From positions 2,139-66,138 of the forward strand of contig CASFUZ010000005.1 in NCBI GenBank assembly GCA_949298065.1: 64,000 bases of DNA. Direction: 5' to 3'. Origin of the DNA: an uncultured Pseudomonadota bacterium (GTDB taxonomy: Bacteria; Pseudomonadota; Alphaproteobacteria; RF32; CAG-239). Positions 3,460 to 42,900 of the stretch are shown piece by piece. The notes below the pieces were generated by a model. The model had not been told where the DNA came from and did no database searches. It was given only the letters and a program-made list of their open reading frames with translations. Numbering within the stretch: the first letter of the stretch is position 1; each line of letters starts with the position of its first letter. The translations under genes and the position numbers were made by a program.

Positions 3460-3482
3460 CAAGATTTTTTATGATATTGATT

Positions 3483-3974: not shown

Positions 3975-4068
3975 TTTCTTTTACCTTTTTTAATAAGTTA
4001 AATCAATTTTTTAAGTGTTATAAGCTCAAATAAAACCAAATTGCAAGAAAAAAATATTCAAAATCAAC

Positions 4069-5445: not shown

Positions 5446-5446
5446 T

Positions 5447-6778: not shown

Positions 6779-6806
6779 ACTTTTCGTCCCTGCTAAAAAA
6801 TCCTGC

Positions 6807-11667: not shown

Positions 11668-12252
11668 CTAGAATATTCCGCCAACGGCAAACCACCTGCC
11701 GTCTTCAAAAACCAAATGAAATGCGGCGCAGTTTGGGATAGCGTCATAAGCAACATTAAAATAATTTAAGAGTTGGCTCATTGTTCCGCCATGGATAGCC
11801 ACCCCCATAACATCATATTTTTCAGATGTTAACTTTTGGAGTTCGGCGAGCACTCGCTCACGCGCTGTTTTTTTGCTTTCTCCTTGCGGAAAAGATATAT
11901 CATCATATTCCGGGGCAAGGCTCGCCCAATGAGACAAAATTTCGGGATAACGATCAGCCAAATCTATTGTAAGCTGTCCTTCCGCCACGCCATAAAAACA
12001 TTCTTTAAGATTTTCGCGAACAATAACGGGAATTTGCAATGCTTGAGCAACAACATCGGCCGTGTGTTTTGCACGAATAAGCGGACTGGAGAAAATAGCC
12101 TCAAGTTTTTTATCTTGGAGTTTGAGCAAAAGTTGCTGAGCTTGAGCAACACCGGTTGGGGTCAGGTCATAATCCATACCGGAACCTTGCCAACGTCTTT
12201 GGCGATTAAGCTCGGTTTCACCATGTCTGAAAATATAAAAATCTTTCCGCAT
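11668..12252 (-). CDS. Histidine phosphatase family protein (phosphoglycerate mutase-like)
   Basis: FYIFRHGETELN catalytic RHG motif. Probable start at the internal Met (MRKDFYIF). The ORF-track start is at 12303. Confidence 0.7.
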   Translation of the reverse strand: MRKDFYIFRHGETELNRQRRWQGSGMDYDLTPTGVAQAQQLLLKLQDKKLEAIFSSPLIRAKHTADVVAQALQIPVIVRENLKECFYGVAEGQLTIDLADRYPEILSHWASLAPEYDDISFPQGESKKTARERVLAELQKLTSEKYDVMGVAIHGGTMSQLLNYFNVAYDAIPNCAAFHLVFEDGRWFAVGGIF

Positions 12253-12354
12253 AAAATACCTCCAAAGGTAGAGTATAAAGAAAAAAACACTAAAGAAAAG
12301 CAAAAAATCTATTGATTAATTTGAGAAGAGAATTATAGTAGCAGTGTTTCTGCC

Positions 12355-12428
12355 GCGGGTATAATTCAATGGTAGAATGAGAGCTTCCCAAGCTTTTAAT
12401 GCGGGTTCGATTCCCGTTACCCGCTCCA
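12355..12428 (+). tRNA. tRNA-Gly (anticodon CCC)
   Basis: Manual fold: acceptor stem GCGGGTA/TACCCGC, D-arm, anticodon stem AGAGC/GCTTT with loop TTCCCAA (anticodon CCC), T-arm GGGTTCGATTCCC, discriminator T, then CCA. 74 nt. Confidence 0.85.
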
Positions 12429-12727
12429 TTAAAAGACCACCCCCAAGAGGGGTGGTTTTTTAATGGAAAGATAAAGACTTGAATCGAACCCGAGAGGGCG
12501 TGAGCCGATAGAAAAGCTCCGGTGGAGCTTTTCGTTGCGAACGGTGCAGTTTTGTTAATTTGTGAGAAGCGACAGCGCAACGACGCAAATGTTACAAAAC
12601 AAACTCAAGATTCCCGTTACCCGCCTTTACTTTTGGCACAATCTCACCACCCCCAAGAGGGGTGGTTTTTTAATGGAAAGATAAAGACTTGAATCGAACC
12701 CGAGAGGGCGTGAGCCGATAGAAAAGC
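12409..12727. repeat. Tandem duplication of tRNA-Gly 3' end plus trailer (att-like direct repeats)
   Basis: The 16-nt tRNA 3' end gattcccgttacccgc (12409-12424) recurs at 12608-12623. The 83-nt block accaccccc...gatagaaaagct (12436-12518) recurs identically at 12647-12729 (its last 2 nt are the Fic stop codon). Confidence 0.8.
12436..12461 (+). terminator. Rho-independent terminator in the tRNA-Gly trailer (repeated at 12642-12667)
   Basis: accacccc-caaga-ggggtggt hairpin followed by TTTTTT. Confidence 0.7.
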
Positions 12728-13336
12728 TTATAAAAGCTGATGAATATCATATTCATCATACCCCTCATAATAATAGCTGACATCAATACCTTTCATAAAG
12801 ATTTCGCGCTCATTAATTTTATCTGTTAAGGCATTTTTCAAGAGGTGCTTTATTTCTATACTTTTTATCGGACTTCTTTCCATTGCTAAAAGATAGTCCT
12901 CCTTATCAATTTTATTCCAGTCCACAACCCTTTTGAGTTCTTTTTTGAATATTAAATCCAACCAGATTCTGGCAGCACGCCCATTTCCTTCTCTGAACGG
13001 ATGCGCAATATTCATCTCAACATATTTTTCAACGATTTCATCAAAAGTAGATTGCGGCATTTTATCAATATTCTTTAGAGATTGTTTCAAATACATAAGC
13101 GGGGCAAATCTGAAATTTCCCTTAGAAAGATTAACATCACGCAGTTTTCCGGCAAAATCATAAATATCTTCAAATAGATATTTATGAATCTGTTTCAGTC
13201 CAGCAAAAGTCCCAACCTTAATTTTATCAATTTTACCACTATCAAAAAGCTTCTTAGCTTTTTCCTTGCTAATTTTTTCTTCAAATCTGTTAAGCTCAAT
13301 CTGATTCGTGATATTTAATTTATTTTCTAAAACCAT
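12728..13336 (-). CDS. fic: Fic family protein, class III (C-terminal inhibitory helix), putative AMPylating toxin
   Basis: 202 aa. Fic active-site motif [15 protein letters not shown]-terminal SYYYEG fits the (S/T)xxxE(G/N) inhibitory motif of single-protein class III Fic enzymes (NmFic-like). Confidence 0.8.
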
Positions 13337-13481
13337 TCACTGCCTCTTTTATACGATATATTTTAATTTAAACACAAAAAAGCTAAAAGGCAATTAAGTT
13401 TTAACTTTTGTCTTTCGATATTTTCGTTTATCTAAAAACACCCTTAATAAATTTTAAATATTTTTCTGCCTACATAAAGAT

Positions 13482-14222
13482 ATGCAAAATGAATATACAA
13501 ATAGCGAATACTGCAACCCCTTTGATAAAAAAACGCAGAATTTTTTTATGAAACTAGAACACTGCGGACGTTACTTATACGCTTATGATAATATCTTACC
13601 CACGGACACTATTGCTGATATTTCCTGTGCCACAGGATACGGTTCAAATTTTTTAGCTCAAAAAGCAAAGTCTGTTATCGGATGCGACATCAATAGCCAC
13701 TATATAAATAGTGCTAAAAAAAATTATGTAAAACAAAACCTCTCTTTTATAGAACTCAATCTTCAAGAAAATATAAACATCCTCAAAGATAAAATAAACA
13801 CTATCGTAAGTTTTGAGACTATAGAACATACAACAGCTCCTTTTGAGGTTATCAAAAAATTCTATAATATCTTGCCCCAAGGCGGAAAACTTTTTTTATC
13901 CTTTCCCAATGAAAAATATGAAATTTTTGATACATCAGGAAAGAATATGGACAAATATCATTTATCCATAATCAAATATGATAAAATGTTGACTTTTCTA
14001 CAAGATAGTGGCTTTACAATTAATAAAATCTTAGGCCAAAGCCTAATTAACAATATTATTTCACAAATCATTAAAATTGAAAAAGACTTAGCTTTCTCTT
14101 TTGACAACCTTTTTAACTACAGCCAAAACAATATTATAAATCAAAGCAGATTATTAGCTTATCCAAACGAAAAAAACATTGAACAAAGTTACTCGTTTAT
14201 ATTTAATTTAAGCAAAACCTAA
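13482..14222 (+). CDS. Class I SAM-dependent methyltransferase, substrate unknown
   Basis: 246 aa. Motif I DISCATGYGSNFLA and the following acidic residue (GCDIN). Very low-GC, codon usage differs from neighbours. Confidence 0.6.
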   Translation: MQNEYTNSEYCNPFDKKTQNFFMKLEHCGRYLYAYDNILPTDTIADISCATGYGSNFLAQKAKSVIGCDINSHYINSAKKNYVKQNLSFIELNLQENINILKDKINTIVSFETIEHTTAPFEVIKKFYNILPQGGKLFLSFPNEKYEIFDTSGKNMDKYHLSIIKYDKMLTFLQDSGFTINKILGQSLINNIISQIIKIEKDLAFSFDNLFNYSQNNIINQSRLLAYPNEKNIEQSYSFIFNLSKT

Positions 14223-14224
14223 CC

Positions 14225-15046
14225 CTACCCCTCGCGGGTAAAAAGGTCTGATTGCTTAACATCTAAAACATTGGCGATTCTTTTGCCCGCCAAGTCATAA
14301 TATTGCGGATTAAGCTCTACCCCGACAAAACGTCGTTTAAGTTTCAGAGCCGCCACACCGGTCGTACCGCTTCCCATAAACGGGTCTAGAATCAAGTCAT
14401 TTTCATGGGTGGAAGCCGTAATAATCCGCTCCAACAAAGCCAAAGGCTTTTGGGTTGGGTGTTTGCCGAAAGTTTTTTCGCTCATCTGCGTTGTGGGAAT
14501 AGCCCAAACCGTGCGCATTTGTGTATGCGGTTTTTTAATAAAATCTTGCGGGAAATCACCGTTTTTCATCGCATCATAATTAAAATAATGCTTGGCTTTT
14601 TTATCTTTTCTGGCCCAAACCAAACTCTCGTGACTAGCCGTAAAATATTTGCAGGACAAATTCGGCGTTGCGTTAGGCTTAAACCAAGCCACGTTGTTCA
14701 AAACATGGTAACCCAGCAACAACATAGCATAACCGCAGGAAAAAATGCTGTGATAAGTACCCGATACCCACAAAGTCCCGTTAGGCTTCAATAGCTTTTT
14801 ACAAAGCGCCAACCATTGTTTATGAAACTCAAAATCTTCGGCAATTCCGCGGCTTTCATCCCAAGCCCCTTTGTCCAGCTTAACCAACTTGCCGTTATAA
14901 CAAGTTTTGCCGGTTTTAGAGAGCATATAAGGCGGGTCGGCAAAAATCATATCAAAAGTTTCTTCCGGAAACTGCTTAAGAACCTCAAAACAATCTCCGT
15001 TATAAAGCGCATAACTTTTATTATCTGCAATCGGCGACACTGACAA
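14225..15046 (-). CDS. CcrM/HinfI-family beta-class N6-adenine DNA methyltransferase lacking the CcrM C-terminal domain
   Basis: 273 aa. DMIFADPPY (motif IV) near the N-terminus and ILDPFMGSGTTGVAA (motif I) near the C-terminus. Block-by-block similarity to Caulobacter CcrM (GTLWVSGTYHSIF, NYDAMK, HPTQKP). The protein ends right after the MTase core. Confidence 0.7.
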   Translation of the reverse strand: MSVSPIADNKSYALYNGDCFEVLKQFPEETFDMIFADPPYMLSKTGKTCYNGKLVKLDKGAWDESRGIAEDFEFHKQWLALCKKLLKPNGTLWVSGTYHSIFSCGYAMLLLGYHVLNNVAWFKPNATPNLSCKYFTASHESLVWARKDKKAKHYFNYDAMKNGDFPQDFIKKPHTQMRTVWAIPTTQMSEKTFGKHPTQKPLALLERIITASTHENDLILDPFMGSGTTGVAALKLKRRFVGVELNPQYYDLAGKRIANVLDVKQSDLFTREG

Positions 15047-15060
15047 TTCCCCTCGCCCGC

Positions 15061-15354
15061 TTATTGATTATAAGAATTGATGATGGCTGTGGCATTAATC
15101 ACCGATTGGCGATACAAACCGCTGTCCAACATATCCAAACTGCGAATGCAATAATTCGCCACCTGATTAGCGGCCAAGTCAACATCGCCGAATGTCTCCG
15201 GCAAAACCGCTTTTTGGCGTGCTTGTTCCAAAATGCAAGCATTAAGTTTGCCCTGCGGTGTCAGAGGAGTTTTATCTTCTTCGGGAAAAGGAGCCAAACT
15301 CGTGCAAGCGGAAAGTCCGCTCAAGACCGCCAACATCATCAGAATTTTTTTCAT
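15061..15354 (-). CDS. Lipoprotein (hypothetical)
   Basis: MKKILMMLAVLSGLSAC lipobox. ~97 aa from the internal Met. The ORF track extends to 15417. Confidence 0.5.
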   Translation of the reverse strand: MKKILMMLAVLSGLSACTSLAPFPEEDKTPLTPQGKLNACILEQARQKAVLPETFGDVDLAANQVANYCIRSLDMLDSGLYRQSVINATAIINSYNQ

Positions 15355-15500
15355 TATTTTATACTTTGCTAAAAATAGTCCTAACTTATGTTTTTTAATA
15401 TAAAACAAACCGCACAAACTGCAAGCCTTTTAGCTGCCTTATACAAAAAAAGAGAGAAAACCTTAAAAGGCTTTCTCTCTTTCTTAATTATTTCATACTG

Positions 15501-16085
15501 CTAGAGCATACCCACTCCACACAAAAAAGCACCGATGAGCAACCCCAACAAGAAGAATGTCAGACAAAATATCCAAACCTTATAAAAAGGCTTGCATAAA
15601 TTGACCAAATCACCGTCCATCAGAGGCATTTTTTCTTTCATAGCCTCAAATAAAGAGTCCTTATCACAAGACTCAATATTTGCCTTACACCAAGCTCTGA
15701 CTTCCGGCTCTTCAATATGAAGGTCAGCATAGATTGCAATAAATGTAGACGGAGCGCCGCAGGCTTCCAAGACTTTGATTTCCCCTTGGAAATAAGCGGA
15801 ACTTTGATACATCTTAATCATCAAATCCTTGAGGTCGTCATGCCTCAGCAAGGACGGCATTTCTCTTGCAATCACCGCCAACGCCAAGAAGAAATCAATA
15901 TTTTCATCTAAGCACCGCTGAAACCCGTCTTTTGCCGTAAAGACCCGATATTCTCCTCCTGCAATCAATTCGGAGAACTCCGAAAACTCAGCCTCTAACT
16001 GAGTTAAGTTCTTTTCACATACGACACCAAAATCGCCCTTAGACAGCGCATTGGCCATCATCAGGACAGTTTCAAATTTCTTCAT
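15501..16085 (-). CDS. Hypothetical tail-anchored membrane protein
   Basis: 194 aa. Single C-terminal TM (IFCLTFFLLGLLIGAFLCGV). No recognisable domain. Confidence 0.45.
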   Translation of the reverse strand: MKKFETVLMMANALSKGDFGVVCEKNLTQLEAEFSEFSELIAGGEYRVFTAKDGFQRCLDENIDFFLALAVIAREMPSLLRHDDLKDLMIKMYQSSAYFQGEIKVLEACGAPSTFIAIYADLHIEEPEVRAWCKANIESCDKDSLFEAMKEKMPLMDGDLVNLCKPFYKVWIFCLTFFLLGLLIGAFLCGVGML

Positions 16086-16105
16086 AAAAAAAAAATTATT
16101 AGTTA

Positions 16106-16660
16106 TTACTTGCGATGAATAAATCCACCGCGTTTCATCAACACAAACATTCTCAGTCCGATAATCTTGGCCGCAGGCTCGGATCTATCGTACCAATCGG
16201 CATAAACACAAATACCGTTGAACAACTGCGGATGCTGACCTTTGTATTTTGCACAAAGTTCCCGTGCTTGCTCCGGGGTTAAAATAGCCGCCACGGAAGC
16301 TATTGCTTCTTTGGGAAGACGATAATCTCCCGTGTTTGCCACCCACCAATTCCACAAAGCTATTCCACTCAACTCTTGCGGCGCAAGAGCTTTCCTTTGC
16401 GGCGCAGAAGTTGGTTCTGGCTTAGGCTCTGCTTTCTCTTCCGGTTTCAAAAAATCAGCTGCAGTTGTCGCATCAACCTCTTCTTGAGGTTCTTGCTCCA
16501 AGACAATTCTTTTCGCCTCTTGCAACTTTCTGATTTTTTCAACTTGCTCCGGATTCAATGCCTCACCTTCAAAAGGAGATTTGCGAGCTACAATTTTTTT
16601 AACACACCAGATTGCCAATACTGCCAGTACGACAATCAAAATAACTAAATCTAGATGCAT
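16106..16660 (-). CDS. Hypothetical N-terminally anchored protein with Pro/Glu-rich linker
   Basis: 184 aa. N-terminal TM (LVILIVVLAVLAIW), PE-rich linker, conserved-looking C-terminal domain. Confidence 0.45.
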   Translation of the reverse strand: MHLDLVILIVVLAVLAIWCVKKIVARKSPFEGEALNPEQVEKIRKLQEAKRIVLEQEPQEEVDATTAADFLKPEEKAEPKPEPTSAPQRKALAPQELSGIALWNWWVANTGDYRLPKEAIASVAAILTPEQARELCAKYKGQHPQLFNGICVYADWYDRSEPAAKIIGLRMFVLMKRGGFIHRK

Positions 16661-16938
16661 ATTATTTTATTTTTAAGTTAAACAATAATTTCTTATTCAT
16701 CCCACAATAATCATCACTTAAGCTCTTTTCATACCACAACGAAAGACTTTTGTCTAGACAAAAAATTAAACAAAAACCGTTCATTCAGAATTATCCCGAC
16801 AGACATCAATCTTGAGTCTTTTTTTTCTGGTATTTAAAAAAATAAAGTGCTATAAAACGCGTACAAGATTCTATTTAAAGTAACTCATGGCCGGAAGATA
16901 AGGCATAAAACCGTCTTAATCCGAGGGCCTTTTTTATG

Positions 16939-30344: not shown

Positions 30345-32387
30345 ATGGCAGAAGCAGAAGAAGAAAACGAAGCCCCAGAAGAAAAGCCCGTTCAACCGGA
30401 AACAGAAAGTAACGGAGAAATCGGAGCTAACAAATTTTTAGTCAAAGAAAGATTTGAAATAGACTATGCACAACCGCTCCCCTGGCTTGATTGTAACGGA
30501 GCCAAAGCCTATCGTGTGATAGACCGCATAGATACCAAACGCGGCCTTTTTGCTCTGCTCTGTAGCAACAAAACCTGCCCACGCTCCACCATTTTGCCCT
30601 ACATCAAATCTCTTGAATGCCGAAGCTTAATGAAACTCGTAGAGTTTGGCATTGTAACCTGGTTGCCGGAAAAATCGCGAAACCTTGCGCTTATCTATAA
30701 AATCCCTTATGGCAAAGTTTTTGAAGGAGGCAAAACCACATTAGATATTCGCAATTCAGAAAAATTTAAAAGCACGCTCATTAGCCTGCTTTCAGTAGTT
30801 GAGGCACTAAAAAACTATAACATAACCCACAGAGCCATACGCGCCGATAATCTTTATTATGCCAATGCAGATAAAACCGAAATTATGATTGGCGATTGTT
30901 GCGCATCATTTCCAAGCTTTCATCAACCTCCGGCATACGAAACTATAGAAAATATGCTTTCCATAGCAGAAGGAAGAGGTAATGGAAGCGAAAAAAATGA
31001 CATATATGCGATTGGTGCGGTCATGATGGCCTTATACTTAGGGCATGAAGTTGGAACAGATTTAAGTTTACCGGAACTTTTAAGGCTAAAATCCAAAAAA
31101 GGAAGTTACCAAACCTTACTTGGAGATGAACATATTCCAAATCAAATTTCGCCGATACTCCGTAATTTATTAACGGACAACATTGAAAATCGCCTGAACT
31201 ACATACAAGTCTACAACCTTTTAGATGGAAAGACAAGCAATTACACATCAGCCACGAGTACGGATCGCCCCAAAAGAACCATATCCTTTAACGGAGAAAA
31301 ATTTTATAACACCCGAGATTTTGCCATAGCACTCAGCAATTCACCGGAAGAAGCTTATGAACTCGTAAAATCCGGCAAATTACTGGATTGGGTAAAAAAC
31401 GGCTTAGAAAACGAAAAACTGGCAGGAAAGATTGAAAAAATATTAAATGCTTTTCCAGAAGGCACAACCTCCACAGAAGTTCTGATGTCAAAGATTTGCA
31501 TTTTACTTTCCCCAGACCTTCCAATCAAACTAAACAACCTCTGTTTATTTCCCGATGGTGCCCCCAAAGCCATCTACTATGCGTTGCGCAATAGCACGGA
31601 CACCACCCCGTTCAAGGAACTTTTTTCCACAGAAATAATCAAACTTTGGTATCAGGAACAAGAACATATGCGCTCACCCGCCAATGCTGGAGAGTTTCGC
31701 ATTTATGTCAATCGGCAAGATATCGGCTATGGAATAGACCGCATAATGTATGACTTTGATGACGACATTCCCTGTGTAAGCCCCTTATTAGGAGATGAAT
31801 TTGTCAATTCTCCGACCAGAATTTTAAGAGCATTAGATAATACATATGCCAAACAAATTGTTAAAAGCATGCCTTATGACCGAAACATTATAGCCTATCT
31901 TAGATGTAAAATGGGAAAAAAAATAGATGGAATTTTAACAGATTTAAGCACCAACAAAGAATATTTACAAGCCAGTGCCGTATTAAGATTATATACCTCA
32001 ATGCAAAATAAATTCGGACCGGCACAACTGCCGCATTTATCGCAATGGCTGTCAAGCTCATCAATGTCCATAATCAAGAGTTATCATAATCTCAAATATC
32101 AAAAATTTTTAGAAAGAGAATTACTTAAGATCAATAAAAATGGCAAACTCCATGAGCTTTGCGACATTTTGGAAGATGAAGAAGCACGCAACAAAGACAA
32201 AGCGAACTATGCCAAAGCCGTAAGCGACATAAACTTTTTACTTGCCGAAAAAAACAAAATACTTAACAACAGCTCCAAATTAGATGATGATGCGCGTAAT
32301 CTAGCCATACGCTTTACCTCTATTTTAGCAATAATGGTCATGCTTGTATCATTTCTGTTCAACCTCATCATGTGGATATTACAATGA
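30345..32387 (+). CDS. Membrane-anchored protein with eukaryotic-like (Hanks-type) protein-kinase fold and divergent catalytic loop
   Basis: 680 aa. ITHRAIRADNLYY aligns to the HRDLKPENL catalytic loop with the HRD Asp replaced by Ala. IMIGDCCASF aligns to the DFG region. DIYAIGAVMMALYLG aligns to subdomain IX. Acidic N-terminus and a single C-terminal TM (ILAIMVMLVSFLFNLIMWIL). Confidence 0.5.
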   Translation: MAEAEEENEAPEEKPVQPETESNGEIGANKFLVKERFEIDYAQPLPWLDCNGAKAYRVIDRIDTKRGLFALLCSNKTCPRSTILPYIKSLECRSLMKLVEFGIVTWLPEKSRNLALIYKIPYGKVFEGGKTTLDIRNSEKFKSTLISLLSVVEALKNYNITHRAIRADNLYYANADKTEIMIGDCCASFPSFHQPPAYETIENMLSIAEGRGNGSEKNDIYAIGAVMMALYLGHEVGTDLSLPELLRLKSKKGSYQTLLGDEHIPNQISPILRNLLTDNIENRLNYIQVYNLLDGKTSNYTSATSTDRPKRTISFNGEKFYNTRDFAIALSNSPEEAYELVKSGKLLDWVKNGLENEKLAGKIEKILNAFPEGTTSTEVLMSKICILLSPDLPIKLNNLCLFPDGAPKAIYYALRNSTDTTPFKELFSTEIIKLWYQEQEHMRSPANAGEFRIYVNRQDIGYGIDRIMYDFDDDIPCVSPLLGDEFVNSPTRILRALDNTYAKQIVKSMPYDRNIIAYLRCKMGKKIDGILTDLSTNKEYLQASAVLRLYTSMQNKFGPAQLPHLSQWLSSSSMSIIKSYHNLKYQKFLERELLKINKNGKLHELCDILEDEEARNKDKANYAKAVSDINFLLAEKNKILNNSSKLDDDARNLAIRFTSILAIMVMLVSFLFNLIMWILQ

Positions 32388-32869
32388 AAAAAGAACAAAA
32401 TAAAAAACCGCTAATAAACTTAAAAAAATCATACAACAAGCTATCCATCGCTCAAAAACTACTTTTGTTCATAGGATTGATATTCATTGTAATTAGCACT
32501 TTGCCGGCCGTAATGGTATTATTGATAGGTTTGCTGCCAACATTCACTATATTAATAACAGATCCCAAGAACACCGATAAATTAGTCATAATCGGAAGCT
32601 TTAATTTAGCTGGAGTATTTATTTACTTGATGAATGTTATCAACACCTTCACCCTACATAATGCTTTCTTTATTGTTGGAGATGTATTTAATCTTATCAT
32701 TATGTTAGGATCAGCAGGTTTGGGTTTAGTTGCCTATTACGAAATTCCCAATCTTTTTATATTTATTTCCAAAGCTTCAGCCCAAAAACGCCTCAAAAAC
32801 ATTGACAATAAACTCGCACGTTTAGCCGAAGAGTGGGGAACAGATTTAATAGACCGCCAGAAAGAATAA
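32384..32869 (+). CDS. Hypothetical integral membrane protein
   Basis: ~161 aa from MKKEQNKK with an ATGA overlap with the upstream gene. Three or four hydrophobic helices. Confidence 0.45.
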   Translation: MKKEQNKKPLINLKKSYNKLSIAQKLLLFIGLIFIVISTLPAVMVLLIGLLPTFTILITDPKNTDKLVIIGSFNLAGVFIYLMNVINTFTLHNAFFIVGDVFNLIIMLGSAGLGLVAYYEIPNLFIFISKASAQKRLKNIDNKLARLAEEWGTDLIDRQKE

Positions 32870-34916: not shown

Positions 34917-35210
34917 ATGGATAAACTAAAACTAGTTAAAACAATCGTATTTATACTAACTTTTCTGCTTGTTTTCGGAAGCCTAATGCTTATCGGCACC
35001 CTTTTCAAAAAGACCAAAACTCTGCCTCGCCTGCCTAAAGAAGTTAATCTGCAAGAACCTATCGGTAGTCGTATATCAGATTTACAAACCAAGGAAAACC
35101 TCCTTTATCTGACCATCCGCGACGGCGGGCTTGCCGATAGAATAATAATTTTTGATACAATAACCGGACAAAAAGTTTCTACCATTTACCTAAATCAGAG
35201 GGAACAATGA
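34917..35210 (+). CDS. Small membrane-anchored/secreted hypothetical protein
   Basis: 97 aa. N-terminal hydrophobic helix (TIVFILTFLLVFGSLMLIGTLF). ATGA overlap with the next ORF. First gene of the coupling-protein block. Confidence 0.4.
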   Translation: MDKLKLVKTIVFILTFLLVFGSLMLIGTLFKKTKTLPRLPKEVNLQEPIGSRISDLQTKENLLYLTIRDGGLADRIIIFDTITGQKVSTIYLNQREQ

Positions 35211-36145
35211 GCGATACAGAGAATGAAGAAACATTAGATTTAAAAACAGAGCTCAAAAGCGAAGAAGCTTTGCCTCAAAATAAAAGCTATGAAGAAGAAA
35301 TCGCCGAAGATGATGAGTTTGAGCGGTTGCTCAACCAATTCATCAACTCCGAGCTGGAAGGCATAGATACCGGAATAGAGGAACCATCAGCCCAACAGGA
35401 GCAAACACCTGCACCTGCGGCTCAAACACAAAACACCTCCCCGAGAAATAAAGGTCCGGAACTGGATACAAACGAAAAAGCTTTGTTTGATGCTTATAAA
35501 AACTTCTCAAACTCCATTATTATGATGGCAAGTATGAATGAGCTTCCCACTCCCGATTTTCGGCTTGATACATCATTGCTTATTCCTCATTACAAATACA
35601 AAACAGGCTCACTGATTGCTTCAGAAGCTATTAGCGGATGGGAAATTATGCTCCAACTTCATCCGGAAGAACTTCAAGGCCTAAGCCCTGACACTTCAGA
35701 TGAAGAATTGTTAGATTTTGCCGAACGCTGTGAAGATGAACTTTTGCAGCTTGCCATTATCTCTTATGTTGAAATCTTAATAGAAATGGAAGGCTGTGAG
35801 ATAGCCATTGAAGAACGCCGCCTCAAAGCCCAACGCCGCAAGATAGAAAAAGAGATTTATGAGGAACATCAACGCCGCTTAGAACGCAAACAACGCTATA
35901 TTGAGGCTATTAAGAAAAAAGATTTTCCGATTGATGCCGAACGCTTGGTAACCAACTATTTCCGCACGGCGCAAAAAGACCCAGATGGGGCCTATCAGGT
36001 TCTGATAAACAATCCGGCAGTTTACGCCCCCATAGACACCGCCAAAATCAAGCCGCGCTTTTTTGGGCTCATTAAGCCCACCCCACAAGACGGTATCAGA
36101 ATAAACCGTGAAATCGGAGAATTTTTAAAAAGGCTAAAAGTTTAG
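35207..36145 (+). CDS. Acidic hypothetical protein (candidate secretion substrate or adaptor)
   Basis: 312 aa. Highly acidic N-terminal half, coiled-coil region, positively charged C-terminus (KIKPRFFGLIKP...INREIGEFLKRLKV). No known domain recognised. Confidence 0.45.
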   Translation: MSDTENEETLDLKTELKSEEALPQNKSYEEEIAEDDEFERLLNQFINSELEGIDTGIEEPSAQQEQTPAPAAQTQNTSPRNKGPELDTNEKALFDAYKNFSNSIIMMASMNELPTPDFRLDTSLLIPHYKYKTGSLIASEAISGWEIMLQLHPEELQGLSPDTSDEELLDFAERCEDELLQLAIISYVEILIEMEGCEIAIEERRLKAQRRKIEKEIYEEHQRRLERKQRYIEAIKKKDFPIDAERLVTNYFRTAQKDPDGAYQVLINNPAVYAPIDTAKIKPRFFGLIKPTPQDGIRINREIGEFLKRLKV

Positions 36146-36225
36146 CGAAAATATAAAAAATATAGACAAAAAAGATTTTTAATGCTAGAATATAGTTAAA
36201 TAAAAAGACTGACAGGACAAAAACA

Positions 36226-37719
36226 ATGGCTGACACTCATGATACAACAAAACCACATCCGGAACCGCAACCCCGTCCGGAGCCTAAACCTACGGTCAAA
36301 TCTGACGAAGCAGCTCCATCCGGCCAGCAAAACACTGATGACAAAACCGCCACTTTTAACGAAAACAGCGGCTCGGAAAATACTGCCCAAGTCAATCAAG
36401 ATGTCTCTTTTGACTCATTGTCCGTCAGCGAACAACAAGATTACCTCACCATCTTGGAAGAAAAAAACAAGCGAGGCCTACTTTCAGTCAGTGAAAAAGC
36501 CGTCTTAGATAATAATAAAAATAACGACAAGACCACCGGTAATAGAAATGTTGGTGATTTTGGTGCCAGAGATGGTGATGAAAATGAAGATCCTGATCCA
36601 GAGAAAAAAGGTCCTTTCAAAGAAAAAGATGTCATTAAATATATGTATGAAGACTGGCTTTTGGAAGGAGCTAACTGGCTTTGGTGTAAGACCGCTGCCA
36701 AGCTGGACAAAGGAGCTTATTGGGCTCAGCAAAAGATTCTTGAACGTATGGCTGAAAAGCGCTTAGAAAAGAACAAAGTTTACGATACGGAAGCCAGACA
36801 TGAACAAATAGCTAAACGCGCCATATCCTCTGGTCAAACTAATATGGATGCCGTCCAAAAGCACGAAGATGCTCAGCTCAAGAACCTCAAACTTCTTAAA
36901 GAAGGCAAATATGCCGAAGCTAATGTTTCAGCCACGACCAAAGTTCTGTTAGAAAACATGGACGACAAAGAAAAAGCGCAATTCTTTAAGATTTCTGAAC
37001 AAGGTATCAAGAATTTTTACAACAATATCAGAATGGCAGAACAATTTGGCTCAAATTACGCACAAGCCGGCATGACCTTTGATCTTGCACAAAACAAAGA
37101 CTACTACCAAGGCAAAAACTTAACTGAAGAATTTGAGAAACAAAAAGCCCATGCCATGCAGCTTTTCGCCAGAAGAATAGACGAAGCCGTCAAGCGTGGT
37201 GAAGACCCGATGAAAGTTGCCGCCAAACTCTTTAATATGTCTAAAAAGGCACTTGAAGCTTCCAACAAGACCATAGAAAAGCGCAAATTTTCAGAAGCAG
37301 ACAAGAAACCAAATAAAGATAAAACTATTCTTAAAAATGGTAACTTAGTTACATACATCAGCAAAATGAGCGATGAGCTCAAAACCATAGCCACTCCAGC
37401 ACAAGGACAAAAACGTGGTATGTATGAAGCTGCGGTTGCTGACATGAATTTTGACAAAGAGGCAAACTTAAGCCAAGAAGAGATTAACAAAGCTTTTGCA
37501 ACAATGCTAATACAGAAAGACGAAAATAACCAACACCGAGGCCGTATTGCAGAGCTCAAACAAAAACTCGGTCTAACCACTGAAAATATGGATGAATTTA
37601 CCAAGATTTACAACCGAAGACAAAAACAAATACGGACTAGGGAATATAACCAACGTGCCGCAGACACATTATCCGGCATGGCCGCATTGGGAAGCCATAT
37701 GTCCGGAGGACGTGATTAA
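36226..37719 (+). CDS. Hypothetical protein with Pro-rich N-terminus and coiled coils (candidate effector)
   Basis: 497 aa. PHPEPQPRPEPKP repeat, long coiled-coil segments, Arg-rich C-terminus (NRRQKQIRTREYNQR). No known domain recognised. Confidence 0.45.
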   Translation: MADTHDTTKPHPEPQPRPEPKPTVKSDEAAPSGQQNTDDKTATFNENSGSENTAQVNQDVSFDSLSVSEQQDYLTILEEKNKRGLLSVSEKAVLDNNKNNDKTTGNRNVGDFGARDGDENEDPDPEKKGPFKEKDVIKYMYEDWLLEGANWLWCKTAAKLDKGAYWAQQKILERMAEKRLEKNKVYDTEARHEQIAKRAISSGQTNMDAVQKHEDAQLKNLKLLKEGKYAEANVSATTKVLLENMDDKEKAQFFKISEQGIKNFYNNIRMAEQFGSNYAQAGMTFDLAQNKDYYQGKNLTEEFEKQKAHAMQLFARRIDEAVKRGEDPMKVAAKLFNMSKKALEASNKTIEKRKFSEADKKPNKDKTILKNGNLVTYISKMSDELKTIATPAQGQKRGMYEAAVADMNFDKEANLSQEEINKAFATMLIQKDENNQHRGRIAELKQKLGLTTENMDEFTKIYNRRQKQIRTREYNQRAADTLSGMAALGSHMSGGRD

Positions 37720-38219
37720 TGATAAAAAAAATATTCAAATTTCTCAAAGCATTGGTTGTAGGTTCAATTTGGACGGTTATTTTTGTTTACATCGCCGAAA
37801 ATATTATGATATATTTATGGAACTTTGACATCCTAAACACGCGCGATTGGCAAATCATTAATAGCTTTTGGGAAAGTGGTGGCAAAATCAAAGCCGGAAA
37901 AGACTACATTTTTATTTTAATGCTCCTAGCTCTCATTCCTTTGTGGTTTTGTGGTTGGAAATATTTTTATCATGTAGATTTCATAAAAGTTTTATTATTC
38001 CCGATAACTTGGTATAATAACCGAATGATAAAAAAATATGGAGAGAACACAAAGCGCATTGTTCTCAAGAACATGGGCACCACAAAAACCAAGCCCAATA
38101 TGGAAGAGATTATTGAAAAAAGATTAAAAGAAAGCAGCAAGCCGCGAGAGAAAGAAACCGGAAAGATTCGTCAATCCATTCACGACAGAATAACTGCTTC
38201 AGAACAAAATAAACAATAA
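37719..38219 (+). CDS. Membrane protein, paralogue of the N-terminal domain of the next ORF
   Basis: 166 aa. WNFDILNTRDWQIINSFWESGG...IFILMLLALIPLWFCGW aligns with WRFDIFNNDHWLYAWNKWNEGW...AFVLIILTFIPLWLTGW of the ORF at 38308. Confidence 0.5.
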   Translation: MIKKIFKFLKALVVGSIWTVIFVYIAENIMIYLWNFDILNTRDWQIINSFWESGGKIKAGKDYIFILMLLALIPLWFCGWKYFYHVDFIKVLLFPITWYNNRMIKKYGENTKRIVLKNMGTTKTKPNMEEIIEKRLKESSKPREKETGKIRQSIHDRITASEQNKQ

Positions 38220-38307
38220 CACTAAGCACTTTTTAACCAATTACGGAGTAATATTTATAGTATAAGGAATAATCTGCCCGACCAGCAGATAAAAATTGGA
38301 GAATAAC

Positions 38308-39561
38308 TTGAAACCCTTACTCATCTTAACAAGAATCATTTTTGTCGGATGCTTCTGGAGTATCTTTTTTCTGGAAGGCATAAGGGTTATTATGCTCCGC
38401 AACTGGCGTTTTGACATTTTTAACAATGACCACTGGCTCTATGCCTGGAACAAATGGAATGAAGGATGGATTATTGATGACCCCAAAGAATGGGCTTTTG
38501 TTTTAATCATACTAACTTTTATCCCCCTGTGGCTCACGGGGTGGGCCGCTCTGAGCCTAATTCCCTGGGGAAAAATTTTCTTAAACATCATCATGTTTCC
38601 CATAAAAGCTTTCCGCAACCTATTCTACAAACCGGTTAAAATCATTGCGAAAAGCGCAGGGGCTCCGGTTGTTAAGAAGAAAAAATCATATAAGGAAATT
38701 CGCCCACGCGGCACACGCGCACCGATTACGGATTATAATGACCCCATACGCCCGAGCGTCTTAAGCAATGCAGCCAAACCGCTGGCTCCAGCAAAACCTG
38801 CGCCGATTAAGAAAGAAGAAACTTCAGCTCCGGCAACCTTTGAGCATAATTTATTTAAGTTTGATGATGACACGGATGACGATTTTGACTTTGATTTTGA
38901 TTCCTTTGACAAGAAATTCAATGAAGAGAAAGCCACAGCCACCCCTAAAGAAGATAAACCCACAGAAGAAACAAAACCGATCAGCAAAAACAAAAACAAC
39001 AAAGAAAAACGAAATACAGCCCCCAAAAACACTTCGCCCACACCACAACAACCACGATCTGGAGGCAACTCTACACTTGAAGTTTTAAAACAAAAAGGCT
39101 ACGAAGTTATCACCACAGCCACAATCAAAAACAGCGTCATTGACTTTATCGGCGTTTCAGACAAACAAATCATCCTCTGTTTGCTTGACAAAGAACCAGG
39201 AGATTGGCTGGCTGATGAAGAACGCTTTAATGATGAAGAACCTTTATGGTTTTCAGAGAGCAGCCATCGCATATCCCCGGTCAGAAAAGTAGACATTGTC
39301 CGCAAGATTTTGGCAGATAAATTATCCGAATCTGATATGAATTTTGAGATTAAAGCCTTTGTAATTGTCCAAATAGGAAATATCATAAATGCGGAAGATA
39401 TGTTTGAAACATGGGATGAATTGAATATCTCAGTAACCAGAATTGACAGGGGAACACCAAAGGAATTAAAATTATTTTCTAAGACACTAGAAGAAGCAAA
39501 TTCGCGTATTGAAAAAGAGCAATTTGAAAAGATAAAAAAATTAATTCGTAGCATAGCCTAA
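38308..39561 (+). CDS. Membrane protein with paralogous N-terminal TM domain, acidic repeat linker and C-terminal cytoplasmic domain
   Basis: ~417 aa. Start uncertain: TTG 38296 in the ORF track, or TTG 38308 with a ggag SD. The linker is DDDTDDDFDFDFDSFDKKFNEEK. Immediately upstream of the coupling protein. Confidence 0.5.
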   Translation: MKPLLILTRIIFVGCFWSIFFLEGIRVIMLRNWRFDIFNNDHWLYAWNKWNEGWIIDDPKEWAFVLIILTFIPLWLTGWAALSLIPWGKIFLNIIMFPIKAFRNLFYKPVKIIAKSAGAPVVKKKKSYKEIRPRGTRAPITDYNDPIRPSVLSNAAKPLAPAKPAPIKKEETSAPATFEHNLFKFDDDTDDDFDFDFDSFDKKFNEEKATATPKEDKPTEETKPISKNKNNKEKRNTAPKNTSPTPQQPRSGGNSTLEVLKQKGYEVITTATIKNSVIDFIGVSDKQIILCLLDKEPGDWLADEERFNDEEPLWFSESSHRISPVRKVDIVRKILADKLSESDMNFEIKAFVIVQIGNIINAEDMFETWDELNISVTRIDRGTPKELKLFSKTLEEANSRIEKEQFEKIKKLIRSIA

Positions 39562-39591
39562 CAGAGTAAAACAGATAAAAGGACACAAGGA

Positions 39592-41814
39592 TTGCAAAAA
39601 AGAGGAGAAGAATGGGAAGAATATGATCATGCCGTCCAATGGATGGTTATGACCGTCGTCATCACCCTTATCGTAACAATCGCGCTGGCAATCATCTCTA
39701 TGCCTTTGGGCTACCTCATTGGCTCTGGCATATCCAAGGATTCCCTAAACGATGTCGGTAAATTTATCACCACGGTTTTTGATAATCCGTCCTATTTATT
39801 TTCACGCTATTGGAACTGGTTTCGCCAGCTATCCGCCTATCGCGGAAGTTTTTCGGTAAGTTTGTGGCTTCCGATTCTCCCCATACTCTCCCTCCCTTTT
39901 GGTTTAATAATCGGAGCGGTAACCAATCCCTATCGTTTTCAGTCAAACATCCATGGTTCAGCCCGCATTGCCGAATATAAAGATATTAAGAAAATGGGCT
40001 TATTTGATGGTTTCTGTATGGTTGTCGGCAAATACAAAGGCCGTCTGCTGATGTTAAAAGAAACCTTATCCACCTTGTGTTGCGCACCTCCGGGAACAGG
40101 TAAAACCGTTGGCGTGGTTATTCCGACAATTTTCAACTCACACGGAATGAGTATTGTCGTCAACGACCCCAAACCGGAATTATGCTATTCCACAACTGGA
40201 GCAAGAGCCAAAGACGGACCTGTTTTTGTCATTAACTGGGGTGCGGAAGACAACCCTGCGGAAGGCATTTATTACCCAAGCTGGAATCCATTGTCGCCCA
40301 ATGCTTTACCGGCTCCGGGACCGGATAGAGATATGTATGTTGACTCCATGTGCAACATTTTGGTTGAAGACCCCAAAGGCGGTGCCGACCCGCACTGGTC
40401 TAAGACAGGTCGCGCAGCATTAACCGGATTCATACACTTTATTGCCTCCAAATGCGAGCGCGCCCGCGCTAATGACTACTTCATCGGTCGCATTTATGAA
40501 GGAAAATTGGATGAAGAAGATAAACGTGTCTTGGAAGGTTATTATCTGGATATGCGCGACCCGATGTCCGCCCGCGCCATCCAAAACCTTAGGAATGATA
40601 ACATTACCATAGACAATTATCTACCGATTGGCACATGGCAGTTACTGCCGGAAAAATGGATAGGACACGAATCCTGCCTGGCTATGATTTTGGAATGGAT
40701 TACAGAAGCCCAAATCAAGCAAGCGCAAGACATCAAACGCCGCATTGAAGAAGGCGACCAAATGGCAGCGATGTCAGACCCCATGCGTACGATGCTTGAA
40801 GAAGCTGTTGATGAAGCCAGACGTTTTGGCTACTCTCCTCGTTGTATTACGGAATTAAGCCAACTATCCTCCATGCCTGATAAAGAGCGCGGCTCCGTAT
40901 TATCAACGGGTTTTGCGGGTATTGGTATTTTCAAGAACTCGGCCGTTGTTTCGCGTACCAGTTTTTCTGATTTGCAGTTCAAGGACTTACGCGGTATGAA
41001 AGACCCGATTACGGGTGAATGGAAACCAATTTCGGTTTATTTGTCAGTTAACCAAGTTGATGCGCGCGCTTTGGGTGTTATTTCGGGAACTTTTATTGAG
41101 CTGATGTCCTCTTACCTAATTGCCAACCCGCCAAAATTTGTAAACAAAACCGATGGTCAAATGGGACCCTTCCCTTGCTTGTTTGTGCTGGACGAGTTCC
41201 CGCAAATGCCGAAGCTGAAAGCCATTATTGATGGTCCGGCGGTCGGACGTGGTCAAAAAGTTTCATATTTGCTGATTGGACAAGACTTAGGCCAAATTTC
41301 CGGTAAATATGGTAAAGATGACCTGGAAACGGTTATCTCAACAACCGCATGCAAAATCATCTTATCCCAAAACAACGAGCAAACAGCCCAGCGTTTTTCT
41401 AAGATGATTGGTAACAAAACCGTCCAAACCACATCTTATTCAAAGAACGAAGGAGCTCTTGGAAAAGGAAGCAACCCGTTTGCCAAGAACGTATCTTATC
41501 AACTTCAAGGAACTTCGGTTATCAGCACCACCCAGCTTTTGAGCTTGCCAATGCTCAAACAGGTCGTTTTGATGCAAGGCTTCATTGACCGCCCGATTAT
41601 GGCAGATTCGCCTCGTTGGTATCTTGATTCCACAATGAAGAAGTTGGCTGCCTTACCGCCCTCACCTTATGTTCCGGATTGGATAGTTGCTCAGCGCGAA
41701 GATATTAATGAGGATATGTTAGCCAAACTTGGCATTGATTATGATCCTGAAGCAGATGACGGCGATGACGAGTTTGACGAAGAAGATGAAGACACAACAA
41801 CCAACCAACAATAA
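39592..41814 (+). CDS. virD4: Type IV secretion coupling protein (VirD4/TraG/TraD family ATPase)
   Basis: 740 aa. Two N-terminal TM helices. Walker A PPGTGKTVGVV. Walker B LFVLDEFPQMPKL. T4CP-like all-alpha and nucleotide-binding domain order. Acidic C-terminal tail (DDGDDEFDEEDEDTTTNQQ). TTG start at 39592 with an aagga SD. Confidence 0.8.
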   Translation: MQKRGEEWEEYDHAVQWMVMTVVITLIVTIALAIISMPLGYLIGSGISKDSLNDVGKFITTVFDNPSYLFSRYWNWFRQLSAYRGSFSVSLWLPILPILSLPFGLIIGAVTNPYRFQSNIHGSARIAEYKDIKKMGLFDGFCMVVGKYKGRLLMLKETLSTLCCAPPGTGKTVGVVIPTIFNSHGMSIVVNDPKPELCYSTTGARAKDGPVFVINWGAEDNPAEGIYYPSWNPLSPNALPAPGPDRDMYVDSMCNILVEDPKGGADPHWSKTGRAALTGFIHFIASKCERARANDYFIGRIYEGKLDEEDKRVLEGYYLDMRDPMSARAIQNLRNDNITIDNYLPIGTWQLLPEKWIGHESCLAMILEWITEAQIKQAQDIKRRIEEGDQMAAMSDPMRTMLEEAVDEARRFGYSPRCITELSQLSSMPDKERGSVLSTGFAGIGIFKNSAVVSRTSFSDLQFKDLRGMKDPITGEWKPISVYLSVNQVDARALGVISGTFIELMSSYLIANPPKFVNKTDGQMGPFPCLFVLDEFPQMPKLKAIIDGPAVGRGQKVSYLLIGQDLGQISGKYGKDDLETVISTTACKIILSQNNEQTAQRFSKMIGNKTVQTTSYSKNEGALGKGSNPFAKNVSYQLQGTSVISTTQLLSLPMLKQVVLMQGFIDRPIMADSPRWYLDSTMKKLAALPPSPYVPDWIVAQREDINEDMLAKLGIDYDPEADDGDDEFDEEDEDTTTNQQ

Positions 41815-41828
41815 GGCAAAATGAAGCG

Positions 41829-42455
41829 ATGTGGGAATGGTCCAACCGGCAAAAGAACAATTCTCCAACACCGGAGGTAACCCAAAAAAACTCCGCATCG
41901 CTTCTTGCCGCTTATAATGACTTGATTGGCAATAGCTATGCCACATATCACAGCCGCGTCAAGAATATTCAGATAGCAGACAATCCCAACAATGAAAAAA
42001 TTACATCTCCGTCTGCCGAAGAAGTCTTTGCTCTGGTTCAAAGCAAAATCCGCGAATATAATCTGCCCGCAAGCACCCAAATTATTGAGAAAGAATATAT
42101 GCCGCAATCATGGCAGGAAATGAACCGTGCCTTTGATCGCTACCATAATCTACGCGCGCGTTTTTTTAAGCTTTTGGGCTATTCTGAACAAGAAAAATGC
42201 CAACAAGCCGGACTAACGGAAGAAGACATAAATTGCTTGAGAAACGGTTTTGCGCCAGAAAACTATAACATACATCTCAAAATTCCGGCAGATTTTGGAG
42301 GGTTGGCTGAATTTGAAAATTTCAGTCTCATCAAAACCCATCCCTATCATGACAACATTCACAGAATTATAGATATGCAAATTGAAAACAACTTTTTAAG
42401 GGTTTACAAAAAAATTTATCTCCCTTGGTTTGAAGGAAAATTTTATCATGATTAG
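41829..42455 (+). CDS. Short HNH-like (His-Me finger) nuclease toxin candidate
   Basis: 208 aa. IHLKIPADFGGLAEFENFSLIKTHPYH fits the H...GG...N...H pattern. Homologous to the motif in the 623-aa ORF at 25099. Followed by a SUKH-like ORF. Confidence 0.4.
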   Translation: MWEWSNRQKNNSPTPEVTQKNSASLLAAYNDLIGNSYATYHSRVKNIQIADNPNNEKITSPSAEEVFALVQSKIREYNLPASTQIIEKEYMPQSWQEMNRAFDRYHNLRARFFKLLGYSEQEKCQQAGLTEEDINCLRNGFAPENYNIHLKIPADFGGLAEFENFSLIKTHPYHDNIHRIIDMQIENNFLRVYKKIYLPWFEGKFYHD

Positions 42456-42900
42456 CCGCTACCTAAATTACTTTCGCCAAGCAACGGGTTGTGTTTTTTT
42501 TGAGCCCGCGGTTGAAAGCAATTTATCAAAAATAAATCACGAATTAACTACACGCAATTTTGCCCCAATCCCCGAAGAATATTATAACTTTCTAAAACTA
42601 ACAGACGGGCTTATTTTCAATGGCATAGAGTTTTATGGTTCCGTTCCGCATTACAGAGAACTTAAAGAATACACTTTTCCCAATCTTATCACAGTCAATG
42701 AATATTACTTAAACTATGACTATTTCATTCGCAAACTTGTCATTGGCCGAATTTCGGAAAATTTACTACTCTACAATGAAAACGAAAAAGTTTATACAAT
42801 TGCCGACCGAATAAACCTTCGTCCAATTTTGGAATGCGAAAGTTTTGTTGCCTTCTTAAAGATTTTTTATGACCACGCACTTCCGCCGAATGAGCGCTGA
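42448..42900 (+). CDS. SUKH (SMI1/KNR4)-like immunity protein candidate
   Basis: ~150 aa. IPEEYYNFLKLTDGLIFNGIEFYG matches the SUKH N-terminal motif. Paralogue of the ORF at 26967. Overlaps the upstream toxin-like ORF. Alternative start at 42430. Confidence 0.45.
   Translation: MISRYLNYFRQATGCVFFEPAVESNLSKINHELTTRNFAPIPEEYYNFLKLTDGLIFNGIEFYGSVPHYRELKEYTFPNLITVNEYYLNYDYFIRKLVIGRISENLLLYNENEKVYTIADRINLRPILECESFVAFLKIFYDHALPPNER

Follow-up and report, generated by a model that had tools for sequence, protein, structure and literature searches.

A chromosomally fixed VirD4/TraG-type coupling protein with a putative membrane-anchored nuclease-fold partner and an HNH/SUKH gene pair in gut Alphaproteobacteria of the RF32 lineage

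In a 64,000-nucleotide (nt) stretch of contig CASFUZ010000005.1 (assembly GCA_949298065.1, an uncultured Pseudomonadota bacterium of the RF32 lineage), here called the window, a string of genes at positions 34917-42900 is arranged around a gene for a type IV coupling protein (T4CP) of the VirD4/TraG type. Our analysis indicates that this locus is a vertically inherited core chromosomal operon under strong purifying selection, not a mobile element or a remnant in decay. We propose, with a probability of roughly 45%, that it encodes a chromosomally fixed coupling-protein/nuclease membrane platform that was derived from a type IV secretion system (T4SS) and has an HNH DNase as cargo. The component families (T4CP, PD-(D/E)xK/NERD fold, HNH, and SUKH) are known. 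What appears to be new is their combination: a chromosomally fixed orphan VirD4 with housekeeping-level conservation, an obligate membrane-tethered nuclease-fold partner, and an HNH/SUKH pair on a T4CP. A search of the literature on RF32 type IV secretion, orphan T4CPs, and CAG-239/Scatocola found no description of the locus.

The genes run head to tail on the + strand in the following order.

34917..35210, + strand: DUF6476 small membrane protein of 97 amino acids (aa) (Pfam DUF6476, 29 bits against a cut-off of 24)
35207..36145, + strand: p312, soluble acidic protein, overlapping the DUF6476 gene by 4 nt
36226..37719, + strand: p497, mostly low-complexity/coiled and fast-evolving, assigned by slot occupancy and without a family match
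37719..38219, + strand: m166, short membrane protein with a basic tail, a paralogue of the N-terminal domain of m421
38296..39561, + strand: m421, membrane-anchored protein with a predicted C-terminal PD-(D/E)xK / NERD-like nuclease-fold domain
39592..41814, + strand: VirD4/TraG-type coupling protein (T4CP), 740 aa, assigned by Pfam matches
41829..42455, + strand: p208, His-Me finger (HNH) nuclease-like protein, assigned by its HNH motif
42430..42900, + strand: p156, SUKH-superfamily (YrhA-family) protein, assigned by NCBIfam NF038335

Nine open reading frames (ORFs) were counted in the string, eight of which are named here, and their junctions are either overlaps or gaps of at most 80 nt.

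The 740-aa protein matches the Pfam T4CP models T4SS-DNA_transf (E value, 1.2e-56), TraG-D_C (1.3e-23), and TrwB_AAD_bind (2.9e-16). Its Walker A motif, APPGTGKT (aa 165-172, nt 40084-40107), is kept in 82 of 82 orthologues, and a Walker B motif, LFVLDE, lies at aa 530-535 (nt 41179-41196). Two N-terminal hydrophobic segments (aa 12-48 and aa 87-113) would form a two-transmembrane (TM) anchor, and the C-terminal tail is acidic. Domains and motifs thus agree with a preliminary description of this DNA, which had claimed a complete T4CP with Walker A/B motifs, two TM segments, and an acidic tail. The protein scores under the cut-off of every NCBIfam equivalog with which it was compared (Ti VirD4, Rickettsia VirD4, IncP TraG, F TraD, and others), the best score being 137 bits against 250 (CD1115), with 128 bits against 728 for PRK13897, and a phmmer search of PDB sequences gave no match. 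We regard it as a bona fide but divergent coupling protein.

Relatives were collected from one genome per GTDB species, which yielded 393 T4CP relatives, of which the best 80 species-level loci were kept. These come from metagenome-assembled genomes (MAGs) titled uncultured Alphaproteobacteria, “Ca. Scatocola faecigallinarum,” Proteobacteria bacterium CAG:495, or Azospirillum sp. 51_20, all of which we take to belong to the GTDB order RF32; an identical T4CP is found on gut-metagenome contigs in ENA. Across the best 80 species-level genomes the T4CP is 77-99% identical to that of the window, and the order rpoH(-)-rluD(-)-DUF6476-p312-p497 slot-m166-m421-T4CP is kept in every sufficiently complete locus. 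The genes for p312, m166, and m421, as well as the p497 slot, are fixed and single copy, in an invariant order, in all species loci long enough to judge. The T4CP (median identity to the window, 82%; minimum, 77%) is more conserved than RpoH, the product of a neighbouring housekeeping gene (75%), and the corresponding medians for MipZ and RluD are 78% and 67%. Its companions have medians of 57% (m421), 49% (p312, found in 73 related loci), 37% (m166, found in 79), and 30% (p497). The GC content of the window shows no island at the locus.

The companion gene directly 5' of the T4CP gene, m421, encodes a helical membrane domain (aa ~5-120), a disordered linker with the acidic-aromatic stretch FKFDDDTDDDFDFDFDSFD (nt 38851-38913), which includes FDDDTDDDFDFDFDSFD, and a C-terminal domain (aa 258-421, nt 39067-39558). 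The C-terminal domain is almost invariant over 81 orthologues, including the segments GDWLADEERFNDEEPLWFSESSHRISPV, GNIINAEDM, and RIDRGTP, the first of which is an invariant insert inside the fold. In the AlphaFold2 (AF2) model this domain has an alpha-beta-beta-beta-alpha-beta-alpha-beta topology that contains the alpha-beta-beta-beta-alpha-beta core of PD-(D/E)xK / NERD proteins, and the fold resembles Can2/Card1, Shedu SduA, and McrC. Most secondary-structure elements have a predicted local distance difference test score (pLDDT) of ~80-88, while that of the invariant insert is ~50. While m421 itself has no Pfam NERD match and a PDB profile search with it gave nothing informative, m421 homologues reach E values of 0.007 and 0.19 against Pfam NERD, both sub-threshold (cut-off, 22.1 bits), and one homologue is named a NERD-domain protein by NCBI. 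As modelled, the m421 C terminus is a PD-(D/E)xK / NERD-like nuclease-fold domain, which the positive-inside rule would place in the cytoplasm. Its invariant acidic residues are D283 and D298-K299-E300 (D-R-E in L083, a relative introduced below), a D-x-E arrangement like that of BamHI. The shorter membrane protein, m166, has hydrophobic segments at aa 5-31 and aa 57-83 and is 28% identical to the m421 N-terminal domain (BLASTP, E 2e-16); the two are paralogues, as had been proposed.

Outside RF32, a search of 1.84 billion representatives returned 274 proteins at E <1e-30, and genomic contexts were looked up for some of these. Three Alphaproteobacteria MAG contigs (L083, L095, and L096; here, lineage B) encode T4CPs with 54-58% identity to that of the window, in the order dnaJ-like(-), RHH_4 (absent in L096), m421 homologue, T4CP, p208 homologue, and p156 homologue, with housekeeping genes on the flanks. 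In all three, as in RF32, m421 lies directly 5' of the T4CP gene, and the lineage-B m421 proteins are 25-28% identical to that of the window. p312 and p497 are not found in the lineage-B modules. DUF6476, present in 69 related loci, is absent from them as well and is probably a general alphaproteobacterial neighbour of rluD that stands outside the module. By these comparisons m421/m166 appear to be the key partners of the T4CP, m421 being kept with it down to ~55% T4CP identity. In at least two lineages the ATPase now resides in a different conserved context, in which the constant element is the nuclease-fold membrane protein m421.

More distant relatives fall into several groups. Three orphan T4CPs (L085, L087, and L089; 34-49% identity) stand alone among housekeeping neighbours. 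In three others (L086, L088, and L090; 31-43% identity), a pentapeptide-repeat protein of ~400 aa with an Arg-rich tail is encoded directly upstream, overlapping the T4CP start or within ~20 nt of it (L086:8772-13042, L088:4227-7658, and L090:225-3823). In all, 9 of the 10 distinct relatives taken from public assemblies have an orphan T4CP, and the housekeeping genes around it differ from one relative to the next. In the T4SS-linked P0036 (L093; 45% identity), the T4CP gene directly follows VirB4...VirB8-VirB9-VirB10-VirB11, and in plasmids of Microvirga and Sphingosinicella (~35% identity) it directly follows VirB8-VirB9-VirB10-VirB11. A rough neighbour-joining (NJ) tree places the RF32 and lineage-B T4CPs beside the P0036 group. 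This placement, together with the position of the P0036 and nearest plasmid T4CPs after VirB8-9-10-11, points to descent of the ATPase from VirB/VirD4 systems.

Several features of individual relatives were seen in passing. L083 has three type-IV-pilin-like paralogues near the module relative (L083:13456-14776), L087 has a prepilin peptidase (Peptidase_A24) directly 3' of the T4CP (L087:2690-3394), and L096 has ComEC ~2 kb downstream of the module (L096:16220-18142). In L095, T7-like prophage genes (capsid, head-tail connector, and nozzle; L095:524-7922) lie within ~2 kb upstream of dnaJ-RHH_4-m421-T4CP. The T4CP of L086 ends in a ~300-aa acidic tail with EWxDF repeats, and ~8 kb from it are a Cas9-like gene (RuvC_III, faint HNH_4) and cas1 (L086:1-2444), which is probably coincidental.

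The HNH/SUKH pair follows the T4CP gene in part of the lineage. An alignment of p208 homologues contains the invariant block PEN..H.K.P.DFGG..N..T..H..(I)H, with H149, K151, P153, G157, G158, N164, H174, and H178 invariant and the HNH core at nt 42255-42374. The best PDB match of the alignment profile is the pyocin AP41 DNase (E 0.05), aligned exactly on the HNH motif. The AF2 model of p208 is confident over aa 61-208 (aa 1-54 are mostly of low confidence, and a helical domain comes next); Foldseek with this model gave non-significant matches, the first of them to HNH-Cas8. Homologues of p208 are confined to this lineage and lack a Pfam domain, PHROGs gave two matches of unknown function only, and a scan of viral contigs for p208 relatives found none. 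We consider p208 very likely to be a His-Me finger (HNH) protein, judging by its motif, and probably a DNase toxin. The Tox-REHH divergent-HNH toxin was considered for p208 and set aside, being a different, RHS/LXG-fused family; Tox-REHH has been tied to the type V, VI, VII, and IX secretion systems (T5SS, T6SS, T7SS, and T9SS) and two toxin-delivery systems, not to T4SS (bioRxiv 10.64898/2026.09.22.753552).

The partner, p156, scores 72 bits against the NCBIfam YrhA family NF038335 (cut-off, 55), while its match to Pfam SMI1_KNR4 is sub-threshold (19 bits; cut-off, 25.4) and that to SUKH_6 is weak too. A lineage-B homologue gives weak matches to SUKH_5, SUKH_1, and SUKH_6. The likelier start of p156 is the ATG at 42448, which yields 150 aa, and the identical contig L001 has a 150-aa gene call. 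p156 is probably a SUKH immunity protein, and SUKH proteins have been described as immunity to nuclease toxins, including HNH toxins (PMC3113570, PMC3482391).

The two genes are always together, either co-present or co-absent, in RF32 and in 3/3 lineage-B loci. Among RF32 species loci the pair is present in 23/80 (a few loci end too near the T4CP to judge); in 22 of these 23, and in all three lineage-B loci, it lies directly 3' of the T4CP gene. In the remaining RF32 locus (L022) it lies ~3 kb downstream, after two Cys-rich secreted proteins. The pair behaves as a presence/absence insertion between the T4CP gene and the next, convergent gene. These results bear out what had been read from the window: the H..GG..N motif of the 208-aa protein proved to be of the colicin/pyocin HNH type, the SUKH-like 156-aa ORF passes a family model, and the toxin-immunity layout is credible and tied to the T4CP, which puts the coupling protein at the centre of the module. 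A polymorphic effector slot 3' of the T4CP gene was considered and rejected, because loci that lack the pair have housekeeping genes, and no alternative toxin, after the T4CP gene. The genes found there are for an RNase G-like protein, a CcrM-like methylase, MurA, TrpB, LigA, and IspA, as well as Cys-rich secreted proteins.

Two short motifs were also noted. The p208 N terminus, MWEWS (nt 41829-41845), is nearly invariant in 22 homologues (M1, W2, and W4 fully), and the lineage-B HNH proteins carry ..NW(E/D)xL.. in their N termini; together these may constitute a short motif for recruitment, in view of the aromatic-acidic repeats that the m421 linker and some T4CP tails contain. At the other end, the lineage-B HNH proteins of L095 and L096 terminate in GGR, which, with the G-x-R ends of p497-slot proteins (see below), may represent a shared C-terminal recognition tag.

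Neither p312 nor p497 could be matched to a family or solved structure in Pfam, NCBIfam, PHROGs, PADLOC, or PDB profiles. p312 has a net charge of ~-12, a disordered N terminus, and a conserved C-terminal half that ends in the basic motif KIKPRFFGLIKP.PQDGIRIN..IGEFLKKLK. Its last 30 aa carry a charge of +3 to +9 in 74 orthologues. The basic C terminus appears to be a conserved structured motif, not a loose charge signal, and the IGEFLKKLK at its very end might just as well form an amphipathic helix that binds the membrane. The p497 slot is always occupied by an ORF of 433-727 aa. Its mean column identity is 19%, with D135, M140, and W144 invariant and the motif GPFKE.DVI.YMY..WL..GANWLW retained at aa ~127-155. 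The median C-terminal charge of these proteins is +3, and the C-terminal pattern G-x(0-2)-R-x(0-1) occurs in 38/74 of them versus 23/1402 background ORFs (counts uncorrected for relatedness). In one species, p312/p497 are duplicated in tandem upstream of m166 (L058 ~2787-8200; ORFs of 282, 533, 134, 282, and 533 aa).

The window contains no VirB/Trb channel gene, relaxase, or integrase, and the earlier claim that a VirB/Trb channel and a relaxase are missing from it is upheld. VirB queries taken from the T4SS-linked clusters gave no match in the window or in any of 88 related loci (total, 1.67 Mb), and within 10 kb of the T4CP there is no channel gene in any of these 88 loci.

In the proposed platform, a VirD4 hexamer and the membrane domains of m421 and m166 would form an inner-membrane receptor that is DotL-DotM-like in layout. 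The m421 nuclease-fold domain, with its invariant acidic insert, would either bind or process nucleic acid or dock basic partners, e.g., the p312 C terminus, and p312 and p497 would serve as adaptors. Where the pair is present, the HNH DNase p208 would be the cargo toxin, passed to the ATPase for export, and the SUKH protein p156 would block it in the producer. Exit across the envelope may use a VirB channel encoded elsewhere, or something else.

Several points weigh against this proposal. (i) Export of p208 is unproven, as a channel gene is missing both from the window and from the 10 kb on either side of the T4CP in all 88 loci. (ii) p208 has no recognised T4SS signal and a C-terminal charge of only ~+1; like p312 and p497, it has no Pfam/NCBIfam domain of any kind, BID included (the presence of an XVIPCD model in these libraries is unconfirmed). 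(iii) In most RF32 species the ATPase is retained without the toxin; with the pair in only 23/80 loci and the T4CP still strongly constrained, toxin export cannot be the main or only job of the system in RF32. (iv) Because the m421 motif D...D-K-E is not the canonical D...(D/E)xK, catalysis by m421 is uncertain, and its cytoplasmic placement rests only on the positive-inside rule. (v) p312 and p497 have no assignable fold.

The strongest competitor, which we consider possible and less likely than the platform, is that VirD4 has left the T4SS altogether and, with m421, makes up an inner-membrane machine, independent of the T4SS, for moving or processing DNA and perhaps also a DNase toxin. Its logic would be that of HerA-NurA, in which a pumping ATPase is paired with a nuclease. 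The VirD4-like hexamer would have been exapted as a membrane DNA translocase that feeds DNA to, or receives it from, the m421 domain, and it might serve to take up, process, or degrade DNA at the inner membrane. HNH/SUKH would then supply a second nuclease, auxiliary and regulated, and not an exported toxin. Such a machine might, with the same reservation, be essential enough to account for core-gene status across a whole order of gut Alphaproteobacteria. The orphan state of the T4CP in 9 of 10 sampled relatives, in differing housekeeping neighbourhoods, and its housekeeping-level conservation favour it, as do the DNA-related partners: the m421 nuclease fold, the p208 HNH motif, the RHH_4 protein of lineage B, and the pentapeptide-repeat proteins, a class known as DNA mimics. 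Type IV pilin, prepilin-peptidase, and ComEC genes adjoin three relatives; no type IV pilus/competence linkage exists in the window itself, however, and no DNA-uptake gene is linked in RF32. Moreover, T4CPs are known only as T4SS receptors, the close sister T4CPs are T4SS-linked, and a SUKH partner is typical of exported toxins.

A reading in line with the preliminary description would be an effector module: VirD4 would serve a VirB channel whose genes lie elsewhere, with p312 and p497 as its translocated effectors and HNH/SUKH as an interbacterial effector/immunity pair, and the membrane proteins would be neighbours without a part in it. We find this improbable. The preliminary description had taken the positive C termini of p312 and p497 as a VirD4 signal, and the charge is indeed conserved (p312, +3 to +9; p497, median +3); the acidic tail of the T4CP, the HNH/SUKH layout, and the rapid evolution of p497, as is common among effectors, also fit. 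The effector role itself does not hold up as well: p312, p497, m166, and m421 are fixed single-copy genes in an invariant order in all species, unlike effector repertoires, and no effector or translocation domain (BID or other) is found in Pfam. The p312 C terminus appears to be a structured motif, m421 covaries with the T4CP across lineages while p312 and p497 are absent from lineage B, and the downstream slot holds no alternative toxin. The locus is thus not a variable effector island but a core syntenic operon of the whole lineage, with a T4CP more conserved than RpoH. The analogies drawn with Bartonella and Xanthomonas need revision as well, since they presuppose a VirB channel, and no VirB gene was found here or within 10 kb of the T4CP in any relative of the two lineages.

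An anti-plasmid or anti-phage defence system, with a T4CP-like sensor ATPase and two nucleases, is slightly less credible still. ATPase-nuclease architectures are common in defence systems, and the resemblance of m421 to Can2/Card1, Shedu SduA, and McrC is in keeping with them, but PADLOC returned only one marginal match (mad8, E 0.0097), the flanks are housekeeping genes, and universal, strictly syntenic, housekeeping-level constraint in 80 species is unlike the patchiness of defence islands. It is this negative PADLOC result and the core-gene behaviour that make defence unlikely. Finally, a remnant of a conjugative or integrative element with its other genes just outside the window is effectively refuted: although the T4CP family is mostly conjugative (4143 of the 5000 best matches in a plasmid search are on conjugative plasmids), no relaxase, integrase, or VirB gene is found in the window or in the 10-kb flanks of the 88 loci, the gene occupies the same chromosomal position in 80 species at 77-99% identity, the composition is not anomalous, and the catalytic motifs are preserved.

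Compared with known systems, the T4CP shares T4SS-DNA_transf, TraG-D_C, and TrwB_AAD_bind domains, two TM segments, Walker A/B motifs, and an acidic tail with the T4CPs of alphaproteobacterial VirB/VirD4 (type IVA) systems. In contrast to these, it and nine sampled relatives lack nearby channel genes, and here it is a core chromosomal gene with a fixed, novel partner set. In the type IVB system of Legionella, the gene for DotM, a protein made of an N-terminal TM hairpin plus a cytoplasmic domain, lies directly 5' of that for the T4CP DotL, and DotM and DotL together form a substrate-receptor platform that recognises charged motifs. The succession of m421 and T4CP genes is analogous to DotL-DotM (IcmO-IcmP) in layout alone: the m421 domain is PD-(D/E)xK-like and not DotM-like, and no IcmSW, DotN, or Dot/Icm channel genes are present. 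A third comparison is with HerA-NurA and other pairs of the FtsK-HerA superfamily, in which a hexameric pumping ATPase of the same superfamily is combined with a nuclease-fold protein, as in T4CP-m421; NERD-domain proteins likewise resemble the m421 domain. Here, however, the ATPase belongs to the VirD4 clade, both partners are membrane anchored, the nuclease motif is non-canonical, and the pair is known from its genes alone.

As to the toxin, effectors of the Xanthomonas/Stenotrophomonas X-Tfe/X-Tfi type carry a C-terminal XVIPCD and are encoded in or near a complete virB1-11 cluster. The locus shares with them the keeping of a toxin and an immunity gene with VirD4, but in p208, which is small, no recruitment domain was detected, and the sampled loci showed no virB cluster. 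VirD4 is described as the effector receptor of bacteria-killing T4SSs (PMC8740702). Relative to the HNH DNases of colicins E7/E9 and pyocins S2/AP41, p208 differs in its N-terminal scaffold and in the replacement of the first His of the HH pair (I-H-L-K); moreover, its partner is a SUKH protein and not a four-helix Im protein, and receptor-binding and translocation domains are absent. p156 passes the YrhA-family model and so resembles the SUKH (SMI1/KNR4, YrhA) immunity proteins of polymorphic toxins. These occur with T5SS, T6SS, T7SS, and similar polymorphic toxins that have long N-terminal trafficking regions, and we know of no linkage of SUKH to a T4CP among their contexts.

The rest of the 64-kb window is ordinary chromosome with housekeeping genes. 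These encode SpoT, MurC/D-like ligases, GcrA, MotAB, PFOR, peptidases, Sua5, a GGDEF protein, RpoH, and RluD, as well as a D-Ala-D-Ala carboxypeptidase, MipZ, PGM, FliR, FlhB, a hybrid kinase, Hda, EptA, and an AcrAB-type pump. After p156 come an ArsR regulator and a convergent ZntA-type ATPase. A promoter/terminator scan of the region gave a site count not above that of shuffled sequences; its best sigma-70-like match (11/12 positions), at 39443-39472 in the 3' end of m421 and 120 nt 5' of the T4CP start, may be an internal promoter. Upstream, positions 12000-16700 are low in GC (0.345 versus ~0.41) and encode a Fic/DOC protein (12728-13336, - strand), an S-adenosylmethionine (SAM) methyltransferase, an N6/N4 DNA methylase (14225-15046, - strand), and a protein with a sub-threshold phage-repressor match (16106-16660, - strand); this stretch is possibly a Fic toxin locus or a small island that was acquired. 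At 30345-32869 lie two overlapping genes, one for a 680-aa protein that has a C-terminal TM segment and gives a faint protein-kinase-like match, the other for a multi-pass membrane protein of 165 aa; this pair is kept beside rpoH in ~44/80 related loci.

As far as we know, the one role in which coupling proteins are understood is that of substrate gate in type IV secretion and conjugation. A T4CP that is fixed in a widespread uncultured gut lineage, with housekeeping-like conservation and no nearby channel, departs from that view, and the HNH/SUKH pair would connect immunity of the SUKH type with a T4CP. Should these genomes encode a VirB channel at another site, the locus would represent an unrecognised receptor complex with new adaptors and HNH/SUKH cargo, belonging to a core T4SS of gut Alphaproteobacteria whose genes are dispersed. 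Should they lack a channel, VirD4 would have been exapted for a different DNA- or toxin-handling function.

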